64,000 nucleotides of DNA from Pseudomonadota bacterium. GTDB lineage: Bacteria; Pseudomonadota; Gammaproteobacteria; Steroidobacterales; JBCCMA01. The notes under the pieces were generated by a model, which made no database searches, was not told where the DNA came from, and saw only the letters and a list, made by a program, of their open reading frames with translations. The stretch covers positions 1,047 to 65,046 of the forward strand of contig JBCCMA010000002.1 in the NCBI GenBank assembly GCA_039026595.1, in the 5' to 3' direction. Of this stretch, positions 1,263 through 41,956 are shown in pieces. A program made the translations under genes and the position numbers. Numbering within the stretch: the stretch's first letter is position 1; each line of letters starts with the position of its first letter.

Positions 1263-1961
1263 TCAGATCGCCTGACGAATGTCGTGCGCGACCACACGAC
1301 CATCGAGAAGATTGACGGTGCGTCTGGCCCAGTCCGCGTGCGACGGTGAATGCGTCACCATCACAATGGTGGCACCCTGTTCATTGAGACTGCGGAGCAT
1401 GCCCATGACCTCTTCGCCATGCGCGCTATCGAGGTTGCCGGTCGGCTCGTCGGCGAGGATCAATGCGGGCTTGGCAATCAGCGCCCGCGCCACCGCCACA
1501 CGCTGTTGCTGCCCACCCGATAACTGTCCCGGTCTGTGGCCGGCGCGGTGCGCAATGCCCACCTGATCCATCACCTCGTCGGCGCGGGCTCGGCGCTGAC
1601 GCGCATCCACGTTCTGATAGAGCAACGCCAGTTCGATGTTCTCCCGCACGCTCAGCTCATCGATCAGATGGAAGTCCTGAAAGATGATGCCGATGTTCTC
1701 TTTGCGCAGCCGGGCAAGCTGGGTTTCGCCGAACGCGGCCACGTCCTGTCCCTGAAAGCGATACTCTCCGTCGGTGGGCGAATCGAGCATGCCCAGGATG
1801 TTCAGCAGCGTGGATTTGCCGCATCCAGACGGCCCCATGATGGCCACGAATTCGCCGACGTCGATGGCCAGATCAATACCCGCGAGCGCCGCCGTTTCCA
1901 CTTCCTCCGTGCGGAACGTTCGGGTCACGCCGTGCAGGCTCAATAGTTCAGACGTTGTCAT
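1263..1961 (-). CDS. ABC transporter ATP-binding protein (MacB/LolD-like)
   Basis: 232-aa ORF with Walker A GPSGCGKSTLLN, ABC signature LSGGQQQRVAVARAL and Walker B LILADEPTGNLD. Confidence 0.95.
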   Translation of the reverse strand: MTTSELLSLHGVTRTFRTEEVETAALAGIDLAIDVGEFVAIMGPSGCGKSTLLNILGMLDSPTDGEYRFQGQDVAAFGETQLARLRKENIGIIFQDFHLIDELSVRENIELALLYQNVDARQRRARADEVMDQVGIAHRAGHRPGQLSGGQQQRVAVARALIAKPALILADEPTGNLDSAHGEEVMGMLRSLNEQGATIVMVTHSPSHADWARRTVNLLDGRVVAHDIRQAI

Positions 1962-1981
1962 GATGTTCTCTCGTTTCAGGA

Positions 1982-3238
1982 TTATTGATCGGTCAGGACA
2001 ATGCGGTCGAGGTCAACGAAATCAGTGTACGGGCTGATCACCAGCCGCTCGCCCTCTTCCATGCCCTCGAGCACTTCGATGAAGCGCGCGTTACGCCGGC
2101 CGAGGCGTACATCACGCCGGGTGGCCGAACGGCCATCGGCCGACACGACAAACACCCAGTTGCCCCCTGTGTCCTGGTAGTACGCGCCGTTCGGAATCAT
2201 CAGCGCGTCGGACGGGTCGCCCAGCGACAAGCGCACTTGCAATGTCTGTCCTCGGCGCATGTTTCCGGGATGGTCACCGTCAAACGCCATGTCCACCTCG
2301 AACTGGCCGTTGTTCACATCCGGATAGATTTTCACGATGCGAAGCGTGTGAGATTGGCCGTCGAGCTCCACAGAGGCCGACAGCCCGAGATCCACGCGCG
2401 GAAGGTAAAACTCATCGATCAACGCTGTGAGTTTGAATCGACCGGGATCGTCCACCTGACCGAGGCGCTCGCCACGCCCCAGCGACTGTCCGATTTCCAC
2501 ATCAAACGCCGTCACCTGACCGGCGACCGGCGCGGTGACATCAAGACTGGACAGGTTCTCACGCGCGACGGTCAGGTTGGCCTGTAATTGAGCAGACGCG
2601 TCCCGGAGTTGATCCATCTGCGCACGCTGCAAGCGTTCGTCCGTCGCCTGTGCTTCCAGCGTCACCTCACGCAGGGCGGTTTGATACGCGAGTTCGTCAC
2701 GCGCATTGTCCACCTCGCGTTTGCCGATCAGCCCGCCCGCGATCAGCTTGTCGGCCCCCTCGACGATGCGGCCAAGCCGCTTGAGCTGGTAATCGATGTC
2801 GACCAGCGTGCGGCGATGCGACAGCCGGTTTTGTTCCAGTTGCAGTCGCAGCGTGTTCAGGTTGTTCAGTTGCTGAGTGACCTCCGCCTCGCGGGCGATG
2901 ACGTCAAGCTGCAACTGCGTGTTGCTTAACCGAACCAGCAGCGCGCCGGCCTCCACAACCGCGCCGTCTTCCACGAACAGCTCTTCCACGCGTCCGCCCT
3001 CCACGGCGTCGAGAAACACCGTGCGTCGCGGCGCGACGCGTCCGCGAATCGGAATGAAGTCCTCAAACACACCGCGCTCGACGCTGGCGATATTCAGTCG
3101 ACTGGCGCCGATGCTCAGACTGCGCCCGCCCTCCGGCAGGCCCACCAGCCAAACGGCCGCGACGGCCGCGGCACACATCGCCGCGCCGGAAACCGGCCAA
3201 AGCCAACGCCGGCGACGGCGCTCAATCGGCTTGTCCAT
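1982..3238 (-). CDS. HlyD-family periplasmic adaptor (membrane fusion protein)
   Basis: The ORF track gives 1982..3289. The protein has an N-terminal TM (WLWPVSGAAMCAAAVAAVWLV), a long coiled-coil stretch (TQLQLDVIAREAEVTQQLNNLNTLRLQLEQNRL...) and a beta-rich C-terminus, which is the MFP architecture. I moved the start to Met18 (ATG at 3238) because the sigma-54 promoter at 3301-3316 predicts a transcript start near 3290. A start at 3289 remains possible. Confidence 0.85.
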   Translation of the reverse strand: MDKPIERRRRRWLWPVSGAAMCAAAVAAVWLVGLPEGGRSLSIGASRLNIASVERGVFEDFIPIRGRVAPRRTVFLDAVEGGRVEELFVEDGAVVEAGALLVRLSNTQLQLDVIAREAEVTQQLNNLNTLRLQLEQNRLSHRRTLVDIDYQLKRLGRIVEGADKLIAGGLIGKREVDNARDELAYQTALREVTLEAQATDERLQRAQMDQLRDASAQLQANLTVARENLSSLDVTAPVAGQVTAFDVEIGQSLGRGERLGQVDDPGRFKLTALIDEFYLPRVDLGLSASVELDGQSHTLRIVKIYPDVNNGQFEVDMAFDGDHPGNMRRGQTLQVRLSLGDPSDALMIPNGAYYQDTGGNWVFVVSADGRSATRRDVRLGRRNARFIEVLEGMEEGERLVISPYTDFVDLDRIVLTDQ

Positions 3239-3300
3239 GGACGCCCCGCTCTTTGGGGTCTCGATCGAAAGTAGGGTTGCGCTGTTCATGTGCGGGACTT

Positions 3301-3316
3301 TGCAAAGCGTGTGCCA
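3301..3316 (-). promoter_or_regulatory. sigma-54 (RpoN) -24/-12 promoter for the HlyD-ABC-FtsX operon
   Basis: The minus strand reads TGGCAC-ACGCT-TTGCA, an exact match to the TGGCAC-N5-TTGCW consensus. It sits 12-60 nt upstream of the candidate HlyD start codons. It also lies in the divergent intergenic region next to a sigma-54-dependent activator gene. Confidence 0.65.
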
Positions 3317-3413
3317 ACACCAGAAAGCCCGTGCCTATGGGCTTTTCCGGACGCGTGAAGCCGCGAAGCTGTGCGATACTGAACAGCAACTGTACGAATT
3401 CGGACACTTGCGG

Positions 3414-4811
3414 ATGACCGGGGACGCTTCCAAAAGCGCAATCGATATTTTTCTGGTCGACGATGACCAGGACGTCCTGAAAGCCGGGCGCATGCTTCTG
3501 GAACGCGAGTACGACGCCGTGCATCCTGTCTCCCATCCTGAAGCCCTCCCGCCCCCCGGCGAGCGGCCCCGGGTGGTGCTTCTGGACATGAACTTCGGGC
3601 CGGGACAGACCAGCGGCGAAGAAGGCCTGCGCTGGCTGAGCAGGCTGTTGCGCACCACACCGGAAGAGGTGGTCATCATGGTGACCGCCCATGGTGATCT
3701 TGGGACCGCCGTACAGGCCATGAAGCGCGGGGCTGCGGACTTCGTCACCAAGCCGTGGCAGAACGAACGACTGCTGGCCACCGTTCGCGCCGGCGTCACG
3801 CTTGCCAGCACGCGCGCCGAGGCGCAGACGTTGCGCGGACAAAACACGGCGCTCAGTGCCGCAAGTGCGGGGGCACCGCAACCCATGATCGGTCAGTCGC
3901 CCGCCATGCGCGGTGTGCTGGATGTGATCGATCGCGCCGCCCCCGTGGACGCCAATGTTCTGGTTCTCGGCGAAAACGGTACGGGAAAAGATCTGGTGGC
4001 CCGCGCGGTGCACCGCGCCTCGCGCCGCGCCGATGCCCCGTTCGTTGCGGTGGACCTTGGTGCCGTGCCCGAATCGCTGTTTGAAAGCGAATTGTTCGGG
4101 CACAAGAAAGGGGCGTTCACTGATGCTCATCAGGACCGCACGGGCCATATGGTGGCCGCGTCGGGCGGAACCTTGTTCCTAGATGAAATCGGCAACGTGC
4201 CACTGCACCTTCAGGCCAAACTGCTGGGCGCACTGGAGCAACGTCGCATCACGCCGGTCGGGTCGACCAAGTCCGAAGCATTTGATGTGCGGCTGATCGC
4301 CGCCACCAATCTTGCGCCGGACAAGCTCGCCGACCCTGAGTGCTTTCGTCAGGATCTGCTGTTTCGACTGAACACTGTGGAGATACAACTCCCACCGCTA
4401 CGTGAACGCTCCGCTGATATCCGGCCGCTACTGGAGCATTACTTGCCCCACTATGAGCAGCGCTACGGCAAACCGTCCCGCGCCATCGATAGCGATGTGG
4501 TCAGCGCGCTGACCGCGCACGACTGGCCGGGCAATATTCGCGCGCTGCGACACGCCGTGGAGCGCGCCGTGATCATGGCGCGCGGCGCAGCGTACACACT
4601 CGAGGATTTTTCGTTACCTGTGACGGCGAAACCCGCGCTGGATACAAGCGCCGAGCTTGCGCTAACCGATAGCCTGAATCTTGAGGCGTTGGAAAAACGC
4701 GCTGTGTCCACAGCTCTGAAAAAGCACGGTTTCAACATCAGTCGCGCCGCCAAGGAGCTGGGCCTCACGCGCGCCGCCCTGTACCGGCGGATGGAAAAAC
4801 ATGGTTTGTAG
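3414..4811 (+). CDS. sigma-54-dependent response regulator (NtrC/Fis family enhancer-binding protein)
   Basis: In-frame ATG at 3414 within ORF 2877..4811; the upstream part is antisense to the HlyD gene. It has a receiver domain (IDIFLVDDDQDVL, VLLDMNF), an AAA+ sigma-54 interaction domain (GENGTGKDLVARAVH, ESELFGHKKGAFTDA, GTLFLDEIG) and a C-terminal Fis-type HTH (NISRAAKELGLTRAALYRRMEKHGL). Confidence 0.92.
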   Translation: MTGDASKSAIDIFLVDDDQDVLKAGRMLLEREYDAVHPVSHPEALPPPGERPRVVLLDMNFGPGQTSGEEGLRWLSRLLRTTPEEVVIMVTAHGDLGTAVQAMKRGAADFVTKPWQNERLLATVRAGVTLASTRAEAQTLRGQNTALSAASAGAPQPMIGQSPAMRGVLDVIDRAAPVDANVLVLGENGTGKDLVARAVHRASRRADAPFVAVDLGAVPESLFESELFGHKKGAFTDAHQDRTGHMVAASGGTLFLDEIGNVPLHLQAKLLGALEQRRITPVGSTKSEAFDVRLIAATNLAPDKLADPECFRQDLLFRLNTVEIQLPPLRERSADIRPLLEHYLPHYEQRYGKPSRAIDSDVVSALTAHDWPGNIRALRHAVERAVIMARGAAYTLEDFSLPVTAKPALDTSAELALTDSLNLEALEKRAVSTALKKHGFNISRAAKELGLTRAALYRRMEKHGL

Positions 4812-4823
4812 AGACGCACTGAC

Positions 4824-6155
4824 GTGAATCTGGGCCGTCAGTTCGGTGTGCAGGCGCTAATGCGTGCGCTGCTTTTGGTCGGTGCGATCGTCACCTTATC
4901 GTTCGTTCTATTTCGCACCGAATTTATTCTGACACCCATTGTGGTCACCGCACTGTGTGTCGGTTTGCTGATTGAGTTCGTGTTCTTCGTACAACGCACA
5001 AATCGCGAAGTGACCCGCTTTTTCGACAGCATCCGCTACGCCGATTTTTCCCATCGCATTGATCCCGCGTTGCACGGCGCGGGCTTTGAGGACATGGCCC
5101 GTAGCATGCGTGACGTGGTCTCACGACTGCAGGACCTGAGACGAACCGGAGAAGAAGATCGACTCCAGCTCCGGGCGATCGTCGACCATGTGCCTGTACC
5201 CATGTTCGGACTGGTGGATCGCGAACGCATCGTGCTGCACAACCACGCAGCGCGACGATTTTTTGCCGCCTACCCGGTGCACACCGTGGATGACCTGGAG
5301 CGATACGGTCGGGAATTCACGCAAGCGGTACGCCAACAGTCTCCCGGTGAGCGCCGCGTCATTTCGCTCAGCAGTGACGGCGCCACCACATTACGCATGA
5401 TGCTGTCGCTCACAGAGATCGTTGTCGGCCAAACCCACCAACGCCTGGTGACGCTGCAAAATATCAGCGACGAACTGGCGGCCAGCGAGCTGGAAGCGTG
5501 GCAACAGATGGCACAGGTGCTCGCCCACGAGATCATGAACTCCCTGACGCCGGTGTCGTCCCTGGCGGATACGGCGCGCACGCTGCTGTCCTCAGGCGAT
5601 CACGATGACCGCAACAAAGCGCAGGACGCCATTAACACAGTGGCGCAGCGCGCCGACGCCTTGATGGATTTTGTTCAGAGCTACCGCCAGTTTTCGCGGC
5701 TACCGGAGCCGCAGAAAGCGGCTGTTGATCTCGAGCCCCTGTTTGGTCACGCGGTCGCGTTCACGGCCGACGACATGCGGGCCGCGGGGATAGAAACTTT
5801 CCAGTCGGTGACACCTGCCTCGCTTCAGGTCCACGCCGACCGCAATCAGCTGGAGCAGGTCCTGATCAACCTTCTGCGGAACGCCAGGTCGGCCCTGCGC
5901 GACACGGCTCAGCCGCAAATCCGAATGGTCGCGCGAACAAACAGCAACGGCCGCACGGTGATCGAGGTAAGCGATAACGGTCCGGGTATTCGTGAGGCAG
6001 ACCGAGAGCGGGTGTTCGTGCCCTACTTCTCAACCACACCGGGGGGCTCCGGGGTGGGTCTGGCCCTGACCCGACAGGTCATGCTGGGGCATGGCGGTAC
6101 CGCGAGTGTCGGGGCGTCGGACACAGGTGGCGCGCGGGTGACGTTGGTTTTCTGA
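4824..6155 (+). CDS. sensor histidine kinase (NtrB/AtoS-like partner of the preceding regulator)
   Basis: GTG start 12 nt after the regulator stop. It has N-terminal TM helices, an H-box AHEIMNSLTPVSS, an N-box LINLLRNA and G-boxes DNGPGI and GSGVGLAL. Confidence 0.9.
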   Translation: MNLGRQFGVQALMRALLLVGAIVTLSFVLFRTEFILTPIVVTALCVGLLIEFVFFVQRTNREVTRFFDSIRYADFSHRIDPALHGAGFEDMARSMRDVVSRLQDLRRTGEEDRLQLRAIVDHVPVPMFGLVDRERIVLHNHAARRFFAAYPVHTVDDLERYGREFTQAVRQQSPGERRVISLSSDGATTLRMMLSLTEIVVGQTHQRLVTLQNISDELAASELEAWQQMAQVLAHEIMNSLTPVSSLADTARTLLSSGDHDDRNKAQDAINTVAQRADALMDFVQSYRQFSRLPEPQKAAVDLEPLFGHAVAFTADDMRAAGIETFQSVTPASLQVHADRNQLEQVLINLLRNARSALRDTAQPQIRMVARTNSNGRTVIEVSDNGPGIREADRERVFVPYFSTTPGGSGVGLALTRQVMLGHGGTASVGASDTGGARVTLVF

Positions 6156-6171
6156 GCGCCCCCAGGCGCTG

Positions 6172-8223
6172 TTAACCCGCGGCTGCGGACGAGTGGTTAT
6201 CGGCAACGGTCGGTGACGCCCCCTCTGACCAGGGCCGACTTGGAGAACGACGTTCCTGACCAACTCTATGCGCACCTGCGGCGGGCACGACAGTGAAAAA
6301 ATCAACCTGTTCCTGCAAGCTGTCGGCCTGGTCGCCGAGCACGCGGCTTGACGCCGTCGCTTCCTCGACCATCGCCGCGTTCTGCTGCGTAACCTCATCC
6401 ATTTTTGCAATCGCCACGTTGACGTCCTGAATACCGTTGGACTGTTCGCGACTGGCCGTTGCGATTTCCTCAACCACCGACGTTACGCTGCGCACGCGCT
6501 CCGCAATGCGCCCAAGAACCTCGCCGGACTCGTTTACCAACCGCGACCCATCGGTCACTTTCTGGACGCTGTCTTCGATGAGTTCCTTGATTTCCTTCGC
6601 CGAGCTCGCACTGCGACCGGCCAGATTGCGGACCTCGTTTGCCACGACAGCAAATCCGCGTCCCTGCTCACCGGCGCGTGCCGCTTCGACCGCCGCATTC
6701 AGGGCCAGCAAGTTGGTTTGAAAGGCGATTTCGTCGATCACGCCCACGATGTCAGCAATCTTCTTGCTTGATTCATCAATCTGCGACACGGCAGACACCG
6801 CGTGCCCCACCACTTTCTGTCCTTCATTGGCTTCGTTGCGCGCCTCTCTCGCCATCGTGCTGGCATCGCTGGCGCTTTCGGCGTTTTGCCGGACGATTTT
6901 CGTCAGTTGATCCATGCTCGCGACGGTGTTCTCAAGGCTGCTCGCCTGCTGCTCAGTACGCCGGCTCAGATTTTCGTTACCGGCTGCAATTTCCTGGGCA
7001 CTGGACCTCAGTGGCGTCACCGCACCGGAAATATTCTGGATCACGTCAAGCAGTCTTTCGACTGTTTTATTGGCATCGTGCTTCAACTGCTCAAAGTCGC
7101 CGGCGTACTCGCCTCTCACCGTCTCGGATAAATCGCCCTGCGCCAGTGCGGCAAACACCCGCATCGTCTCACCGAGTACGCTTTGCGCTACATCCAAAAG
7201 TTCGTTCACCGCACCGGAGATGCGCAGCATGGCCCCGGATTTGTCGTCGAGGCGAATACGACCCTCAAGCTGACCGACGCTGGCCTGGCCGACAATGGCC
7301 TCAACCTCTTTCTCGGTGCGGGTTTCTTCGGTCAGGTCTGCCCAGTCGACAACGGTGCCGAGTCGCTCGCCCTCTTCACTCACGACCGGCGTCGCGACTA
7401 TATTCACCGTACGGCCGCCGATCTCGATGACCGTGTCGTGCGTCCCTTTCAATGCGCGCAGCATGCTCTGCTGGTGCGCAGGATTTTTGTGGAACACATC
7501 GATCTTCGAGCCCATGAGTTTCGCGGCACTGAAGGCGGGTAGCTCCTTGCGTAGATCCGACTCCATGTTGCGAAACAGCTTGTCCGCCGACGTGTTCATG
7601 TAGACGATATTGAAATCGGTGTCGGCCATCATGACATTGGCCGTTGAGCAGTCGAGTGCGTGCCGCACCATCGCGTTATCACGCAGCAACTCGCGCTGAC
7701 GAGTAATGTCGGTCGCCAGTTTCACCACTTTGTACACGCGGCCGTCGCGTCCTCGAATCGCGTTGTAGGACGCACTGATCCAGACCTCCTTGCCGCCTTT
7801 GCCAACGCGCTCGTACTGAGCGGTGTACGAATCTCCGCTGCGCAGGCGCGCCCAGAAGTCGCGATATTCGTTACTCTCGCGATAGTCCGGTTTGACGAAC
7901 ATGCCATGGTGCTTGCCCTGTATCTCCGGCAGCGTGTACCCCATGGTCTGCAGGAAATTATCGTTCGCATTCAGGATGGTGCCGTCGGGCGTGAATTCGA
8001 TGATCGCCAGGGATTTGTTGATCTCGTCGACTTCGAGGATGTCGTGCATGAGACCCTTCTGCATGAGCGACAGCGCAACCACGGCCACCAATGTCACGAC
8101 GATCACCAGAACCGTCAGTGCTGTCGATGCGCCACCCACCCAGAGCAACGCCAGAACGGACGGAACGGCCGGCAATGCGTAAGCAGCGAGCGTCTTCGGG
8201 CGCAATTGAAATGGTAGATTCAT
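6172..8223 (-). CDS. methyl-accepting chemotaxis protein with two PAS domains and HAMP
   Basis: The ORF track gives 6172..8304; Met28 ([13 protein letters not shown] at 8223) precedes the TM segment. It has two PAS modules ([23 protein letters not shown]...; [22 protein letters not shown]...). The MCP signalling domain shows the conserved hairpin [40 protein letters not shown]. Confidence 0.9.
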
Positions 8224-36268: not shown

Positions 36269-36454
36269 TCAGCCTACTCGTTCGTCGGGAGGACCTGGCC
36301 GCTCACGCTCATCGGGCGGTCCCGGACGGTCGCGCTCGTCGGGCGGCCCGGGACGTTCACGCTCGTCCGGCGGGCCGGGCTGGAGGGGTTGCAGCTCGTC
36401 GTCTTCACGCGGATCGGGCGTGGCTGAGGTGACCTGGGACGGGATATTTGTCAT
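36269..36454 (-). CDS. 61-aa acidic Pro-rich peptide with 4 tandem PGPPDER(E/D)R repeats
   Basis: The sequence is MTNIPSQVTSATPDPREDDELQPLQ-PGPPDERER-PGPPDERDR-PGPPDERER-PGPPDERVG. Differences between the repeats fall almost only at third codon positions of this frame (details in the findings). The SD is weak (AGGG). Confidence 0.6.
   Translation of the reverse strand: MTNIPSQVTSATPDPREDDELQPLQPGPPDERERPGPPDERDRPGPPDERERPGPPDERVG
36272..36379 (-). repeat. 4 x 27-nt tandem repeat (coding)
   Basis: The units read on the minus strand are CCCGGCCCGCCGGACGAGCGTGAACGT, CCCGGGCCGCCCGACGAGCGCGACCGT, CCGGGACCGCCCGATGAGCGTGAGCGG and CCAGGTCCTCCCGACGAACGAGTAGGC. Confidence 0.9.
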
Positions 36455-36551
36455 GGGTTGCCCTGTGTTGTGGGTTATTCTTCACAATAAAGCTTAGTCC
36501 CAGTCGGTACGGATTGCGAGAATTCGGCCGCTAGAAGAGACCGTTCGAGTC

Positions 36552-38552
36552 ATGACCCCGTTCTTTCGACAACTTGCGAACGAGATTCGTCGACGCAAAG
36601 TGCTCCGTGTGCTTGCGTTCTATGCGGTGAGTGCATGGCTTGTGCTGCAGATCGGCGAGGTCACGTTTGAACCGCTTGGTCTGCCGGACTGGAGCATGCG
36701 AACACTGATCTTCACCGTGATCATGGGGTTTCCGGTGTCGCTGGTTCTGGCGTGGGTGATCGACATCCGATCAGACGGACTGATCTTCGATCTGCCGCTG
36801 TGGGTGGGTGATACCGACGCGCCGCGAACCGCCCGTAAATCCGATCTGATCTATCTGCTCGTACCGGCGATGCTGCTGATCGGCGGCACGTACAAAGGCA
36901 TTGAACTGTTCACGGAGCGAGTGGGCGGCGGTGACCCGTTCCCCATCAGTGCCGACGGGCCGTCACGGGCCAGCATCGGCGTGCTCGCCTTCGAGAGCTT
37001 TGACGACAGCAGCGACAGCCAGTTTTTTGCCAATGGACTGGCCGAAGAGATCCTGTTCCTTCTGAACGGCGTACCGTCGCTCGACGTTGCGGCCCGCTCG
37101 TCGTCGTTCCAACTCAGCAACGCCGGACTCAGTGCCACCGAAGTCGCCGAGCGACTAAACGTCGGGTTCCTGCTCGAAGGCAGCGCGCGCCGCAGTGGCG
37201 ACCAGATTCGCGTGACCGCGCAGCTGGTCGATGGCGAAAAAGGTCTTTATCAGTGGAGCCAGGTCTTTGATCGGCAGCTTTCAGATGTGTTCACTATTCA
37301 GCAGGAAATTGCCCACGCGGTGGTGCGTGAACTGAAAGTGGCCATGTCACTTGACGACGAAGCGCGGCTGGATCAAACCCCGACCAAAGACATCGATGCG
37401 TACCTTCTTTTTTTGCAGGGACGCGAGCAGCTTCGCAGCTCGATCGATGCAGATATCATGCGCCGGGCGATTGCCTCGTTTGAGCAGGCACTCTTGAAAG
37501 ACGCGTCGTTTGCACGGGCGCACGCCGGCATCTGCGAGGCGCGTTTGCGAATATATGAGATCACCAACGCCATCAGCGATTTCGAGCAAGCAGAAGACGC
37601 CTGCAATAACGCCGCATCCGTCGACCCGGAACAGCTGACCGATACACGCATGGCGATGGCGCAATTAAATCGCGCGCGGGGTCGCCTTACGATAGCCGCG
37701 GATTTAATCGAACAGGTGATCGTCAATGCCCCGGACGATGCCGCAGCCTACATCGCGCTCGGTGAGATTCGTTCGGACCAGAAGCGCGAGGCCGAGGCCA
37801 GATCAGCGTTTGCGAATGCCATTGAACTCAAGCCCAGCGACTGGCGTGCGCATGAGGCCCTCGCGAGCTTTCTGTATCGCAACGAGTTCTACGAGGAAGC
37901 GGCCGGCGTCTACGAGGAAGTGACTCGGCTCGCGCCGGAAGTGGCATCGGGTCACGCGGGCAAGGGCGCCGCGTACTGGATGCTGGACGAGCTTGAAACC
38001 GCTGAGGCGGCCTATCGGCGTTCGCTGGCGCTCAAACCGTCCCGACAGGGCTACACGAACATGGGCTTGCGCTTTTACTACGCCGGTCGTTTTGACGATG
38101 CGGCAGACATGCAGCGCGAGGCACTGAAATACGCACCCGACGATCATCGTGTCTGGGGCCGCCTCGCCGAATCCCTACGTCTGGCCGGCGCCGCCGGTAG
38201 TGAGTCCGCGGAGGCCTACGTGCGCGCGCGCGACCTGGCGTCAGGGAATTTGCAGATCAACCCGTCTGACTGGTCCACGCGCGGGCTTCTGGCGTTGTAT
38301 TCCGCCCATCTTGGGCAAGACGATGCGCTGGCCGAGGCAGCGCGGGCGGTGGCCGACTCTGAGGAAAACGCGGAGGCACTTTATTATGAGGCGCTGTGTC
38401 TGCTGGAGTTTGGCAGCGAAGCCGAAGCAGTGGACAGGTTGCACCGCGCGGTCGAGGGCAATGCCGGTTACCGCCGCTTTATTCGAGACGACCCTGACCT
38501 TGCGGTGTTGGCGGAGCGCGCTGATTTTCAGGCGCTGGTCAGTGAACCGTAA
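36552..38552 (+). CDS. membrane-anchored TPR repeat protein (TolB-N-like periplasmic module plus TPRs)
   Basis: The N-terminus (EIRRRKVLRVLAFYAVSAWLVLQIGEVTF) and a second TM form the conserved membrane module seen in many TPR/cyclase proteins. Next comes SIGVLAFESFDDSSDSQFFANGLAEEILFLLNGVPSLDV, then more than 8 TPR-like repeats. It is divergent from the repeat-peptide/caspase/CHAT operon across a 97-bp spacer. Confidence 0.85.
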   Translation: MTPFFRQLANEIRRRKVLRVLAFYAVSAWLVLQIGEVTFEPLGLPDWSMRTLIFTVIMGFPVSLVLAWVIDIRSDGLIFDLPLWVGDTDAPRTARKSDLIYLLVPAMLLIGGTYKGIELFTERVGGGDPFPISADGPSRASIGVLAFESFDDSSDSQFFANGLAEEILFLLNGVPSLDVAARSSSFQLSNAGLSATEVAERLNVGFLLEGSARRSGDQIRVTAQLVDGEKGLYQWSQVFDRQLSDVFTIQQEIAHAVVRELKVAMSLDDEARLDQTPTKDIDAYLLFLQGREQLRSSIDADIMRRAIASFEQALLKDASFARAHAGICEARLRIYEITNAISDFEQAEDACNNAASVDPEQLTDTRMAMAQLNRARGRLTIAADLIEQVIVNAPDDAAAYIALGEIRSDQKREAEARSAFANAIELKPSDWRAHEALASFLYRNEFYEEAAGVYEEVTRLAPEVASGHAGKGAAYWMLDELETAEAAYRRSLALKPSRQGYTNMGLRFYYAGRFDDAADMQREALKYAPDDHRVWGRLAESLRLAGAAGSESAEAYVRARDLASGNLQINPSDWSTRGLLALYSAHLGQDDALAEAARAVADSEENAEALYYEALCLLEFGSEAEAVDRLHRAVEGNAGYRRFIRDDPDLAVLAERADFQALVSEP

Positions 38553-38593: not shown

Positions 38594-39190
38594 TCAGGCC
38601 TGCGCGGTCGCGGCAACGCTCCGTTCTTTTTCAAGATGATGGTGCGCGTCATCGATTTTCATATAGTTCACCAACGCGTTGCCATTGGTCGGCGCAAAAA
38701 GAATGCGCCGCGGGTGCACACCCCCGCAGTCGTCCGACAGAACCTTGATGCCCTGCTCGCGGGCAAACCGCCGAATAAACTCCGTATTTTTGCTGCCAAT
38801 TCCGCCCTGTGAGGCCACAAGATCAGCACCGCCGAAGACTTTCATCTGAAGATCACCACGGCGAGCGCCGTTCACGATTAGCGCGTCAATCAGTGCTTCC
38901 ATGGCCGCAACACCGTAGCGTTGCTCCTCGATACATGGCTGGGAAGACGCTTGCTTTGCCGCCCCTGGCAACAGGAAATGATTCATGCCGCCGATGCAGG
39001 TAACCGGATCGTGGATGCAGGCGCTGATGCACGATCCGAGCACCGTACAGATCAGTTCCTCATGCCGTGTGGCGTAGGCTTCACCGACCGATATTCTCGC
39101 CACCACGATACCAAGGCGGGGGTGAAAGGAGCGTGAGACACCCTCGAACCCTGCGAAACAGGGCTGCGGCGTTTCAGGCCACGCACTCAT
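38594..39190 (-). CDS. cheD: chemoreceptor glutamine deamidase CheD
   Basis: Motif TVLGSCISACIHDPVTCIGGMNHFLLPG, plus MKVFGGA. The start abuts the stop of the upstream MCP gene. Confidence 0.9.
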   Translation of the reverse strand: MSAWPETPQPCFAGFEGVSRSFHPRLGIVVARISVGEAYATRHEELICTVLGSCISACIHDPVTCIGGMNHFLLPGAAKQASSQPCIEEQRYGVAAMEALIDALIVNGARRGDLQMKVFGGADLVASQGGIGSKNTEFIRRFAREQGIKVLSDDCGGVHPRRILFAPTNGNALVNYMKIDDAHHHLEKERSVAATAQA

Positions 39191-41956
39191 CTAGAAGCAC
39201 GCCCAATCCACGTCTTCATCAGCGTCCGCCTGCTTGTTCAACGGTGACTGCACGTCGCTCCCCGTATCTGTTTCGACAAGCGACGATGCACCGCTTTGCG
39301 AGGCATCGCTCCACGGACGATCGGCACGACGACGATCGGTCTGCTTCGCACTTGGCGCCCGGCTGCCGTCCACTGAGAAAAAGGACATCAGCTCATCAAG
39401 CTCCTGAGCCTGACCGCCCAGCTCTTCGCTCGCAGCAGCGGCTTCCTGAACCAGCGCCGCGTTCTGCTGCGTGAATGCGTCTATCTCGATGACCGTACTA
39501 TTGACCTGGCCGATGCCGGTCGACTGCTCCTGACTCGCCGTCGCAATCTCGCCCACGGTTTCGGTCAGTCGATTTACCTCATCGACAATCTCGACCAGCG
39601 TCTGACCCGATTCATTGACCAGACGCGACCCCTCATCCACTTTCCTGCCGCTGTCCTCGATCAGATCCTTGATTTCTTTGGCCGCGCTGGCACTTCGGCC
39701 CGCAAGATTGCGTACTTCATTTGCTACCACGGCAAAACCGCGACCCTGTTCACCGGCACGCGCCGCCTCAACGGCCGCATTCAGAGCGAGCAGATTGGTT
39801 TGAAACGCGATCTCGTCAATCACGCCAATGATGTCTGAAATCCGCTGGCTGGAGGTGTTGATCTCGCCCATGGCGCGAATCGCATCACCAACGACTTCGC
39901 CGCCGCGCTCAGCTTTGCTGCGCGTGGCCTGCGCCAGTTCATCTGCGCGGGCCGCGTTCTGTGCATTCTGCTGCACCGTCCCTGTCAGCTCTTCCATACT
40001 GGCCGCCGCCTTTTCCAGACTGGCTGCCTGCTCTTCCGTGCGTACCCGCAGGTTGTTGTTGCCGTTGGCAATCTCACCGGAGCCGCCCTTGACAGACGCC
40101 GCCGCCTCCTTGATGCCGTTGACGACTTCCGTCAGGCGAACAACTGTGGCGTTAGCGTCCTGTTTGAGGCGCTCGAAGCTCCCTTCGTACTCGCGATCAA
40201 CGGTCTGAGTCAGGTCACCCTTGGCCATGGCGCTAAAGACCCGCACGGTATCGGTGTTGATTTGTTCCGTAACGCTGAGCAGCTTGTTCATATTGTTGGA
40301 CAACGCAGCAAAGAAACCGCTTTTGCCCTGCATATCCACACGTCGCGTCAAATCACCGGCCTGCGCCGCCTGCACCACCGACTGGACTTCAGACTCGACA
40401 CCGACCTCTTCGGTTCGGTCCTCGAAAATCAGAACGACGCCGATGCGTTTTCCCTGTTCATCTCGCACCGGGTTACTCTTGACGCGGACCGAGAACTGCT
40501 CAACCTGTAAATCGGTCGTGTGTGAATCATGGACCCGCTGCAACACATTCCCGCTTTGATCCAGAGGCGAGATCAGCGTCTCAACCGGCACACCAACCAG
40601 TTTGGTCGAATCGATGCTCCCGAGCTGCGGCACGTGCGATCCGAGCTTTGTCACAAGCGCCCGCAGTGCGCGATTGGCAAAGACAATATTGAGATCCTGA
40701 TCAGCGATGACCACCATGCCGTCGATGTTATTCAACGCCACCTGAATTCGGTTGGACTCATCCAGCTTGCGCTGATCGTCTATCGCGCGCTCTTGCATTA
40801 CCCGCTGCATCGATTGTGTTGCGGCCATGACGCCGGTCGCTTCCCGGCGCGTTGTGAGGTCCATAGAGAAGTCGCCGTTCGCAAGACGCTCAAGACCCTC
40901 GATCAGAACATCAACGTTCGCACCCAGGTTTCGGTTCAGCACGCGGAACCGGAATACAAAGAACGCATTGGCCAGAAGAATTGCCACGCCGGCCAGCACC
41001 CCAACCAGGACCGCACTTTGCAGCGACTGGCCTGCCTCGTCAGCGGCCGCAAGACCCAGTGCCTCCAAATCCGACAAGAGGCGATCCTCGACCGCTTTCA
41101 GTGCATCAAGGCGTCCACTCTGAGCGCGGAACCAGTCCTGAGGTTTGATACCGAAACGTCCACGTGACGCGGTGTCGAAGGCCACTTCGCGCATCCGGTT
41201 GGATTCGAGGACGCTGGCGGCGTTCTGCTGAGCGGTCAGAAAAGCCGCCTGGTCCGGTGACAACCCTCGTTTCACCGCCTGCAACAGAGCGTCCTGTCCA
41301 GCCACAAGCTGTGCGAATCGATCTGCCGCTCCGGGCGCAAACTTGCCGTTGGTGAACGCCACACTCAGCGCGGAGCGCTCATGACCGGCCATCTCCTTGG
41401 CCTGCGCAAGGCTGGCATACGCTGTGCCCAGACGAGCCACACCCGCGTTGTCGGCCAGTTTGGGGATCGCGGCGATGACCTCCAGATAGGCTGTGGTGAC
41501 ACGGGAGTATTCCTTCAGGGAGGCGTCCGGTGTCGTTCCAAGCGCATCGACTCTGGCGCGCTCAGCGCGGATCACATTCGTCATTCCGGTAGCGTCAGAG
41601 AGCGCCGCTGTGAATGTCTCCGGCAAGACCGTAAGGTCAACCTGATCGATGACGCTCTTGAGTTCACCCAGCAAGCGATCGCGCTCGGCACGCTGCGCCT
41701 GCAAGTCAGCTCCGAAGTTTTTGCCGCCGCTGCTCAAGAAGCCCGAGGACAAGCCTCGTTCCTTCTGCGTCGCATGGAGCAGTGCACCCATCTCGGTGCC
41801 AAGCCGAGCAAAACCAACCTGCTTTGCACTGGCTTCCTTCATCGCCAGCGAACTGCCCATGTCGTGGACGGTGAACCAGACCAGACCCAGGAGCGGGACG
41901 GTCAGGACCAGAATTGACTGGACAGCGAGTGGGAGGCGTCGGAGCCGGTTAACCAT
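39191..41956 (-). CDS. methyl-accepting chemotaxis protein with periplasmic NIT-like sensor, HAMP, PAS and MA domains
   Basis: 921 aa. TM1 is [19 protein letters not shown]. The NIT-type motif is [22 protein letters not shown]2 is followed by HAMP and PAS ([21 protein letters not shown]). The signalling hairpin is [40 protein letters not shown]. Confidence 0.9.

Follow-up and report, generated by a model that had tools for sequence, protein, structure and literature searches.

A small gene that carries a tandem array of proline-rich repeats was analyzed in a 64,000-nt stretch of DNA from a Pseudomonadota bacterium (positions 1,047 to 65,046, forward strand, of contig JBCCMA010000002.1, assembly GCA_039026595.1); this whole stretch is referred to below as the window. 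The gene lies on the minus strand, between a gene for a metacaspase-like protease and a divergent gene for a protein with TPR repeats. The sole existing annotation of its 61-aa product is that of a hypothetical protein in a Pseudomonadota metagenome-assembled genome. The gene and its array are located as follows:

36269..36454, minus strand: small gene, 61 aa, from the list of open reading frames (ORFs); ATG start, product MTNIPSQVTSATPDPREDDELQPLQ-(PGPPDERER)(PGPPDERDR)(PGPPDERER)(PGPPDERVG), TGA stop at 36271..36269.
36272..36379, minus strand: four tandem units of 27 nt (9 codons) within the 61-aa ORF.

Read on the minus strand, the codons of the four units are:

Unit 1: CCC GGC CCG CCG GAC GAG CGT GAA CGT.
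Unit 2: CCC GGG CCG CCC GAC GAG CGC GAC CGT.
Unit 3: CCG GGA CCG CCC GAT GAG CGT GAG CGG.
Unit 4: CCA GGT CCT CCC GAC GAA CGA GTA GGC.

An earlier note on this DNA had described four minus-strand units of 27 nt that differ mostly by synonymous changes and had named the nonapeptide PGPPDERER as their product. Translation, Tandem Repeats Finder (36282..36379, period 27, 3.6 copies, score 112) and counts of variable columns agree with this description, the encoded units being PGPPDERER, PGPPDERDR, PGPPDERER and PGPPDERVG. Third codon positions make up 9 of the 11 variable columns across the four units (hypergeometric P=1.2e-5) and, just as the note had it for the first seven codons, all 7 of 7 there (P=8.6e-6). 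The full R-P-G-P-P-D-E core is present in three of the four units, the first one reading Q-P-G-P-P-D-E. Two further ORFs overlap the array, one of 92 aa on the plus strand (36149..36427) and one of 44 aa on the minus strand (36274..36408). The repeat peptides that they encode differ between units, and both ORFs are by-products of GC-rich Pro/Gly/Arg codons.

A search with the single peptide sequence returned only the query itself, and a profile built from seven peptide variants produced 3 matches among 8000 word-sharing candidates. Since sequence searches with this peptide fail because of the composition-bias correction of HMMER, the family was sought through the neighbouring caspase gene. From more than 500 full-length caspase homologues, 160 loci were fetched; labels such as L002 denote these caspase-anchored neighbourhoods. 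In the same slot, about 35 related loci (from Gammaproteobacteria, from Gemmatimonadota and from metagenomes) contain a small ORF that starts with ATG behind a Shine-Dalgarno (SD) sequence and encodes an array of 2-10 tandem units, each of 6-14 aa. In the two nearest loci, L002 and L003, the caspases are 63% and 59% identical to that of the window, the synteny is the same, and the peptides end in …PGPPDERVR-PGPPGGDDEPL-GPPDERER-PGPPDERVG and …(PGPPDERER)x2-PGPPDERSD, respectively. In some 30 further loci, the small ORF is on the same strand, encodes 38-90 aa and stops 42-181 nt before the caspase start. The frame is open in the orthologous loci, with ATG and SD kept and with indels that are in-frame only; the number of repeats, for which the earlier note had suggested looking for variation, does vary across loci, from 2 to 10 copies.

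The repeat units have periods of 6 aa (RPGPAE), 7 aa (RPGPPDT/K/R, RPGPPEK/T and RPGPGDK), 8 aa (RPGPPGQQ), 12 aa (RPGPPDERAPAA and RPGPPDVNAPTT) and 14 aa (RPGPPDENVKAPAT and RPGPGDTDTAPSDE). The gammaproteobacterial core is R-P-G-P-x-[D/E], in which R-P-G-P is invariant and Pro-Pro is not. Variants from Gemmatimonadota and unassigned metagenomes consist of R/G/D/poly-Pro units, namely (GRTGDSPPPAAK)n, RGDGDTPPPAPPPK, REGPPAPPIAGDG, GKGREDPPPPPPP, KGRGGDAAPKAA and DRDPQPKPIEAI. At three loci (L118:~3710-3900, L144:~3420-3590 and L068:~3680-3840), a single C-terminal R-G-D/poly-Pro unit (…GARGDKTPPPPPPGD or …GGRGPGRPPPPPDLGGEA) replaces the array, and these small ORFs have an N-terminal amphipathic or coiled-coil-like helix. 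At L058:~3480-3800, a 16-codon tandem repeat that is open in several frames (REEGRPQEGREEDGPQAH or KKAVRKKAAKKTARKRTA) precedes the caspase gene. The N-terminus of the peptide is 5-27 aa long and variable, and no member has a hydrophobic segment or a signal peptide. No Pfam, NCBIfam or PADLOC model matches the peptide; the repeat motif (RPGPPD, RPGPGD and PGPPDER types) is absent from open-access text in any relevant context, and the conflict-system surveys that were searched make no mention of Pro-rich repeat peptides. The peptides are a previously unannotated micro-protein family, apparently the small partner of a caspase-like protease module, which no database family or open-access paper describes.

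The earlier note had argued against the overlapping plus-strand ORF on the grounds of reading frame. For this frame, plus frame 0 (ORF 36149..36427), the argument stands, the encoded peptide differing from unit to unit. Plus frame 1, which had been overlooked, reads the array as QPT-RSSGGPG-(RSRSSGGPG)x3, with zero replacements among units 1-3, and is equally synonymous in the window: the variable sites are third positions in this frame as well as in the minus frame. It is a general property of the genetic code that the antisense partners of Pro, Gly, Arg (CGN), Asp/Glu, Thr and Ala codons belong to four-fold families. Since both frames are synonymous there, the pattern in the window alone cannot pick between the minus frame and plus frame 1. 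Upstream of the repeats, plus frame 1 lacks any ATG, GTG or TTG, and it is separated from the TPR gene by a stop codon.

A frame-blind test was performed on about 28 arrays bounded at the DNA level only, these bounds replacing those set by identity of the sense peptide, which were possibly circular; the outcome was the same with either kind of bounds. In every array, the period is divisible by 3, and the variable columns are distributed over the codon phases as 211/48/21, so the third-position bias holds in the larger sample. Sites that are two-fold degenerate in the sense frame and four-fold degenerate in the antisense frame showed 140 transitions and 5 transversions, compared to 464 transitions and 554 transversions at sites that are four-fold degenerate in both frames (Fisher P=6e-37 for pairs that are not independent). 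Sites that are four-fold degenerate in sense and two-fold degenerate in antisense showed 9 transitions and 22 transversions. Substitution constraint follows the sense (minus-strand) code only and not the antisense code.

Within the arrays of many loci, 40-130 pairwise synonymous differences and zero replacements were counted. Codon identity between the copies in the window is 11, with 11.4 expected for independent draws from the codon usage of the caspase gene; since the copies match random draws, synonymous sites are saturated. When orthologous loci were compared, as the earlier note had proposed, the ratio of non-synonymous to synonymous substitutions (dN/dS) for the whole ORF was 0.13-0.23 (window, L002 and L003), with 0.17-0.24 for the adjacent caspase gene. 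In the repeat part, dN/dS was 0 at a proportion of synonymous differences (pS) of ~0.63, and over their final 17 codons the ORFs of the window and L002 differ at 9 synonymous and 0 non-synonymous sites. With dN/dS of 0 in the repeats and frame-specific substitutions, the view that the repeat is old and is maintained by purifying selection as a minus-strand peptide is upheld, and it is confirmed that the repeats belong to a real, strongly conserved 61-codon minus-strand gene. Recent duplication is visible in the arrays of L007 and L106. In three other arrays (L085:434-628, L115:2586-2759 and L015:3667-3888), the copies share fewer identical codons than random draws (P<=0.008), a pattern that hints at selection against repeat identity at the DNA level, i.e., avoidance of recombination or slippage.

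Three elements that may govern expression of the small gene were found around it:

36491..36519, minus strand: promoter-like TCGCAA-N17-TAAGCT, with a -35-like element at 36519..36514 and a -10-like element at 36496..36491; putative function.
36461..36464, minus strand: SD-like AGGG, 7-10 nt before the ATG.
36241..36267, minus strand: intrinsic-terminator-like hairpin AAAGCGGCGCC-cga-GGCGCCGCUUU followed by UU, identified by folding.

The promoter-like element is conserved as TCGCAw-N17-TAwGCT in the upstream alignment of most gammaproteobacterial loci. In about 20 loci, it precedes the start of the small ORF by ~35-45 nt and occupies the stretch that separates the divergent TPR and peptide genes; it could be a promoter or an operator common to both. 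A purine-rich SD at the equivalent distance was present in 25 of the 25 loci examined. The hairpin begins 1 nt past the TGA stop and ends 32 nt short of the caspase ATG (36208), which is preceded by its own GGGGGAA SD; the spacer leaves no room for a separate promoter. With a dG of -24.8 kcal/mol (z=-2.2 for the spacer), the hairpin is stable in both minimum free energy and centroid folds, and strong hairpins are enriched in the peptide-caspase spacer (z<-2 in 11 of 25 loci). Over its full length, the leader RNA has no unusual degree of structure (z=-0.63), the terminator stem alone being stable in the centroid, and folds of the window's leader RNA showed no anti-terminator pairing that overlaps the leader ORF. 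A scan of 36100..36700 for consensus promoters and terminators called nothing, the promoter-like element and the hairpin included; the hairpin is missed by the scanner because A-U pairs absorb its U-run. No RNA family was found in the window at the Rfam gathering threshold.

The genes that flank the small gene in the window are:

34244..36208, minus strand: metacaspase-like (orthocaspase, C14B-type) protease, 654 aa; Pfam Peptidase_C14, then beta-rich domains with a weak DUF4384 match.
32009..34231, minus strand: CHAT-domain protease, 740 aa, from Pfam, with a transmembrane (TM) segment after the protease domain; present in some related loci only.
36552..38552, plus strand: divergent TPR-bearing partner, 666 aa, with a pair of hydrophobic helices at the N-terminus, then a middle region, then TPR repeats (Pfam, NCBIfam; TPR domain at residues ~300-666).

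Residues C26, D29, H85, D143 and C145 of the caspase are invariant in 30 homologues; H85 and C145 are the His-Cys dyad, in H(Y/F)SGHG and D-x-C-H-S-G. Its GCvNDA, HfSGHG and DcCHSGT motifs are conserved and align to solved metacaspases, including Yca1 and AtMC4. The AlphaFold2 model (mean pLDDT 79) has its best fold matches among solved metacaspases (AtMC4, AtMC9, GSU0716, Yca1 and MALT1), with AtMC4 at the top. C14B enzymes cleave after a basic P1 residue, and two Asp residues form the pocket (PMC6426788). The neighbouring protease is thus predicted to cut after Arg/Lys; since it is metacaspase-like and conserves the pocket residues D29 and D143, Arg, and not Asp, is the likely P1 residue. 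The linker of the caspase, which is predicted to be disordered, reads A-T-R190-G-P-G-G in the window, and T-R-G/S occurs in 20 of 30 caspase linkers. The Gemmatimonadota-type caspases at L042:3974-7480 and L116:1601-5158 are longer, ~1170-1185 aa, and have a C-terminal DUF7379 (E ~1e-55) besides C14 and DUF4384. Fusion of the repeats to the caspase N-terminus was looked for as Rosetta-stone evidence, and none was found among the longer homologues inspected; the repeats are in a separate ORF in all loci.

In 12 of 12 orthologues of the CHAT protein, residues ~360-425 form a Pro/Ala-rich linker followed by a hydrophobic, probably TM, segment, and the CHAT protease is probably membrane-anchored. 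An association between peptide and CHAT was rejected, as CHAT is missing from many peptide loci and is present in loci without the peptide. The sequence R-L-G-P-D at CHAT residue 558, considered as a candidate site, is a chance match that is not conserved in the 12 orthologues. A different protein, of ~155 aa and with several TM segments, has its gene immediately behind that of the caspase or the CHAT protein in about 30 loci, whether or not these carry the peptide (for example L016:8245-8721 on the plus strand and L086:2584-3054 on the minus strand), and it is the commonest downstream partner of this caspase family. It has no Pfam, NCBIfam or PADLOC match. In its N-terminal tail, an Arg within T-R-G-G-P-D-x-D is invariant (30/30), and the protein is a candidate for a protease-activated membrane effector; in the related loci it looks more like an effector than the peptide does. 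The PADLOC matches obtained are generic ones only (caspase, SAVED_CHAT, TIR and kinase), and no defined defence system was recognized.

A small ORF is present in 28 of 30 loci that have an adjacent TPR-bearing gene and in 1 of 70 loci that do not (Fisher P=2.5e-21, a value that overstates the significance of the co-occurrence because the loci are not phylogenetically independent). The N-terminus of the TPR partner is swapped between loci: the window has two hydrophobic helices there, L016 and L040 have a TIR domain, and Gemmatimonadota have a Ser/Thr kinase (partners elsewhere are encoded at L016:1438-3684, L042:580-3537, L046:759-3608 and L064:254-3145). Swapping of the N-terminus with the TPR region kept is typical of modular conflict or signalling systems. 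The peptide gene is nearly always co-directional with the caspase gene and immediately upstream of it. At L086 and L087, the caspase gene is inverted and the peptide gene, still divergent from the TPR gene, precedes the gene for the 155-aa protein; at L089, the peptide is present without an adjacent TPR gene. In the window, genes for CheD, a methyl-accepting chemotaxis protein with NIT/PAS/HAMP domains and CheB (38594..41956, minus strand, and beyond) flank the module. These flanks are kept in L002 and L003, which points to a stable neighbourhood in the chromosome and not to an obvious mobile island.

Four things are observations: the gene, which frame is under selection, the family and the associations between genes. 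Starting from them, we infer a mechanism in which the peptide may bind the protease or be cut by it, may bind the TPR protein and may be expressed in excess because of the hairpin. The product is a micro-protein that begins with a short polar segment and continues in tandem Pro/Gly/Arg/acid units; it almost certainly has a disordered, extended conformation. Its gene would be the first cistron in a conserved transcription unit of its own, with the hairpin behind it, and in the window the hairpin with its U-run would favour an excess of peptide over the protease encoded further on. The peptide would act in trans, in a module that comprises the TPR partner, the peptide and the metacaspase-like protease, joined in some loci by the CHAT and/or 155-aa protein. 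The gammaproteobacterial unit T/K/E-R-P-G-P-x-D/E and the T-R-G-G-P-D tail of the 155-aa protein have in common Arg, Gly at +2, Pro at +3 and then an acid, with Pro at +1 in Gammaproteobacteria; the unit also resembles T-R-G/S in the linker of the caspase itself. Each unit would mimic the Arg-containing recognition site of the protease, and the active site would be occupied by the array, a multivalent competitive substrate or pseudosubstrate. In Gammaproteobacteria, the Pro that follows Arg may slow down cleavage of the bond or prevent it. As a second binding partner, the TPR protein would control how much peptide is available. The earlier note had hinted at the peptide as a protease substrate, which is plausible. 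To the reading as a whole, i.e., a translated and disordered peptide that is a multivalent mimic of the Arg site of the protease and is coupled to the TPR protein, we assign a probability of about 0.42.

Several observations weigh against this reading. The presence of the peptide follows the TPR gene and not the caspase, and many loci have the caspase and the 155-aa protein without the peptide. The 155-aa partner is missing from the window, L002 and L003, which leaves other loci and the caspase linker as the basis of the mimic argument. The resemblance between motifs is short (R, G, P and an acid) and could be a coincidence. In most loci, the spacer hairpin has no U-run, and it is missing from some. 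The association with the TPR gene fits at least as well a model in which the array tethers or regulates the TPR partner as its ligand or adaptor, without being a protease substrate and with a merely coincidental likeness to the sites. TPR domains classically bind short extended peptides. The 28/30 against 1/70 distribution, the position of the peptide gene beside the TPR gene at L086 and L087 despite the inverted caspase, and the lack of the peptide in caspase loci that have no TPR gene, even where the 155-aa partner is present, all speak for this model. It leaves unexplained the invariant Arg and the likeness to the T-R-G-G-P-D tail and caspase linker, and it is at odds with the TPR-less locus L089 and with the nearly constant position of the peptide gene upstream of, and co-directional with, the caspase gene. 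A role as TPR ligand alone is a serious competitor, which we consider unlikely. It is improbable, in our opinion, that the array is a multi-copy precursor cut by the Arg-specific protease to identical 6-14-aa peptides whose binding to the TPR protein switches on a TM, TIR or kinase output. Equal purifying selection on all copies and a copy number of 2-10, as in polyprotein precursors, a single Arg at each unit boundary next to a protease predicted to be basic-specific, and co-occurrence with a TPR protein with swappable output domains would all fit, and in the non-gammaproteobacterial variants the residue behind Arg is G, T or E, which should permit cleavage. In Gammaproteobacteria, however, the residue behind Arg is always Pro, as a rule a poor one at P1', and the single-unit variants L118, L144 and L068 are also difficult to reconcile with a precursor. 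A bolder version, in which the activated orthocaspase would chop the array into many identical intracellular second messengers of 6-14 residues, to be sensed by the partner (TIR, kinase or membrane type) through its TPR domain, is a long shot; if true, it would constitute a protease-to-peptide amplification relay in a bacterial death/immunity module, a counterpart of plant metacaspase-PROPEP signalling.

The peptide could also act in cis, as a leader or arrest peptide, with ribosome pausing on the Pro-rich units, either at PPD/PPE motifs dependent on elongation factor P (EF-P) or at R-x-G-P, setting the state of the terminator hairpin and the expression of the protease gene. PPD motifs are EF-P-dependent pause sites. 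The strong hairpin with its U-run 1 nt past the stop, and the lack of room for a promoter before the caspase ATG 32 nt on, would suit such a role, and R-A-G-P, R-A-P-P and R-G-P-P are arrest cores upstream of diverse genes (PMC12992588). Yet R-P-G-P is not among the tested or known cores, which are single C-terminal copies (PMC12992588), while here strict amino-acid selection extends to all copies, the distal ones included. Pro-Pro is not conserved, units RPGPGDK and RPGPAE being in existence, and a simple EF-P/polyproline stall was rejected as a conserved feature: L141, L094 and L084 have PGPGD, and L016 and L040 have PGPAE, with no Pro-Pro. The hairpin is not universal and mostly lacks the U-run, no anti-terminator pairing was seen in a leader RNA whose z is -0.63, the downstream gene is a different one at L086 and L087, and the presence of the peptide tracks the TPR gene rather than the downstream gene. 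We give a leader peptide little chance. As to the array being a non-coding or antisense repeat and no gene at all, the absence of replacements among units 1-3 in plus frame 1 (RSRSSGGPG) and the 92-aa plus-strand ORF (36149..36427) over the array could be quoted in its favour. No start codon precedes the repeats in plus frame 1, plus frame 0 encodes a different peptide in each unit, antisense two-fold sites vary freely while sense two-fold sites do not, and the sense ORF with its SD is conserved in ~35 loci; this explanation, refuted by the frame-specific substitutions, deserves hardly any credence.

Bacterial caspase-like proteases are recognised as switches of cell-death and anti-phage modules. 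The micro-protein family described here, for whose function the evolutionary evidence is unusually clear, is hidden from profile searches, is conserved across at least two phyla and is tightly linked to a TPR sensor/scaffold and to an orthocaspase predicted to be Arg-specific. The short, synthesisable motif R-P-G-P-x-D/E and the candidate natural cleavage motif T-R-G-G-P-D make the specificity and regulation of the protease testable, and a cultured carrier of the peptide gene exists, Pseudomarimonas salicorniae CAU 1642 (L017). There, the TPR gene is at 1677..3590 (minus strand), the peptide gene at 3779..3958, the caspase gene at 4001..5932 and the gene for the 155-aa protein at about 5966..6403. 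The peptide gene is, moreover, a naturally occurring "codon-scrambled" repeat gene, in which identical peptide repeats are encoded with saturated synonymous sites.

Known systems resemble the module in part, and each differs from it in a defining feature. In plants, the metacaspase AtMC4 releases the danger peptide Pep1 from PROPEP1 by cutting after Arg. The likeness consists in a metacaspase accompanied by a small dedicated precursor with an Arg site, cleavage being hypothetical here; PROPEP1 is a single-copy precursor whose product has an extracellular receptor, whereas the peptide is a tandem array in a bacterial cytoplasmic context. RRNPP systems likewise have a TPR protein and a small peptide gene that are adjacent and co-inherited. 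Their pro-peptides are secreted and re-imported, and the receptors have helix-turn-helix or phosphatase outputs; the peptide described here lacks a signal peptide, and its TPR partner has a two-TM region, TIR or kinase as output. A multi-core precursor of a ribosomally synthesized and post-translationally modified peptide was considered and rejected, since the N-terminus is only 5-27 aa long and variable and the neighbours are proteases and a TPR protein, with no modifying enzymes. With RAPP-like and SecM arrest peptides (PMC12992588, PMC10951233, PMC10951299), the family shares a small upstream ORF and an Arg-x-Gly/Pro-Pro motif, R-P-G-P resembling R-A-G-P of SecM. Those peptides have a single C-terminal core (R-A-P-P, R-G-P-P or R-A-G-P) and are typically secretory or membrane mini-proteins (PMC12992588), in contrast to the 2-10 selected copies, the absence of a signal or TM segment and the variable downstream gene seen here. 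None of the published cores (R-A-P-P, R-G-P-P, R-A-G-P and R-A-P-G) occurs in the family peptides. The N-terminal prodomain of type I metacaspases is also a Pro-rich repeat region, presumed regulatory, that accompanies a C14B Arg/Lys protease (PMC6426788); here, this region is a separate gene with a promoter-like element, SD and stop, and it has no zinc finger. Small proteins encoded beside caspase-like proteases are cleavage substrates of those proteases (PMC12642450), a precedent for the role proposed here. The effectors EACC1, Pepco and gasdermin are folded, autoinhibited pore-formers activated by one cut, unlike the disordered tandem-repeat peptide without a hydrophobic segment; moreover, the window caspase scores 48.8 bits against the cut-off of 140 of the caspase_w_EACC1 model, and the peptide has no profile match. 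What these effectors and the peptide have in common is that they adjoin a caspase-like protease, in modules that recombine with varied sensors (PMC12642450), here TPR with TIR or kinase.

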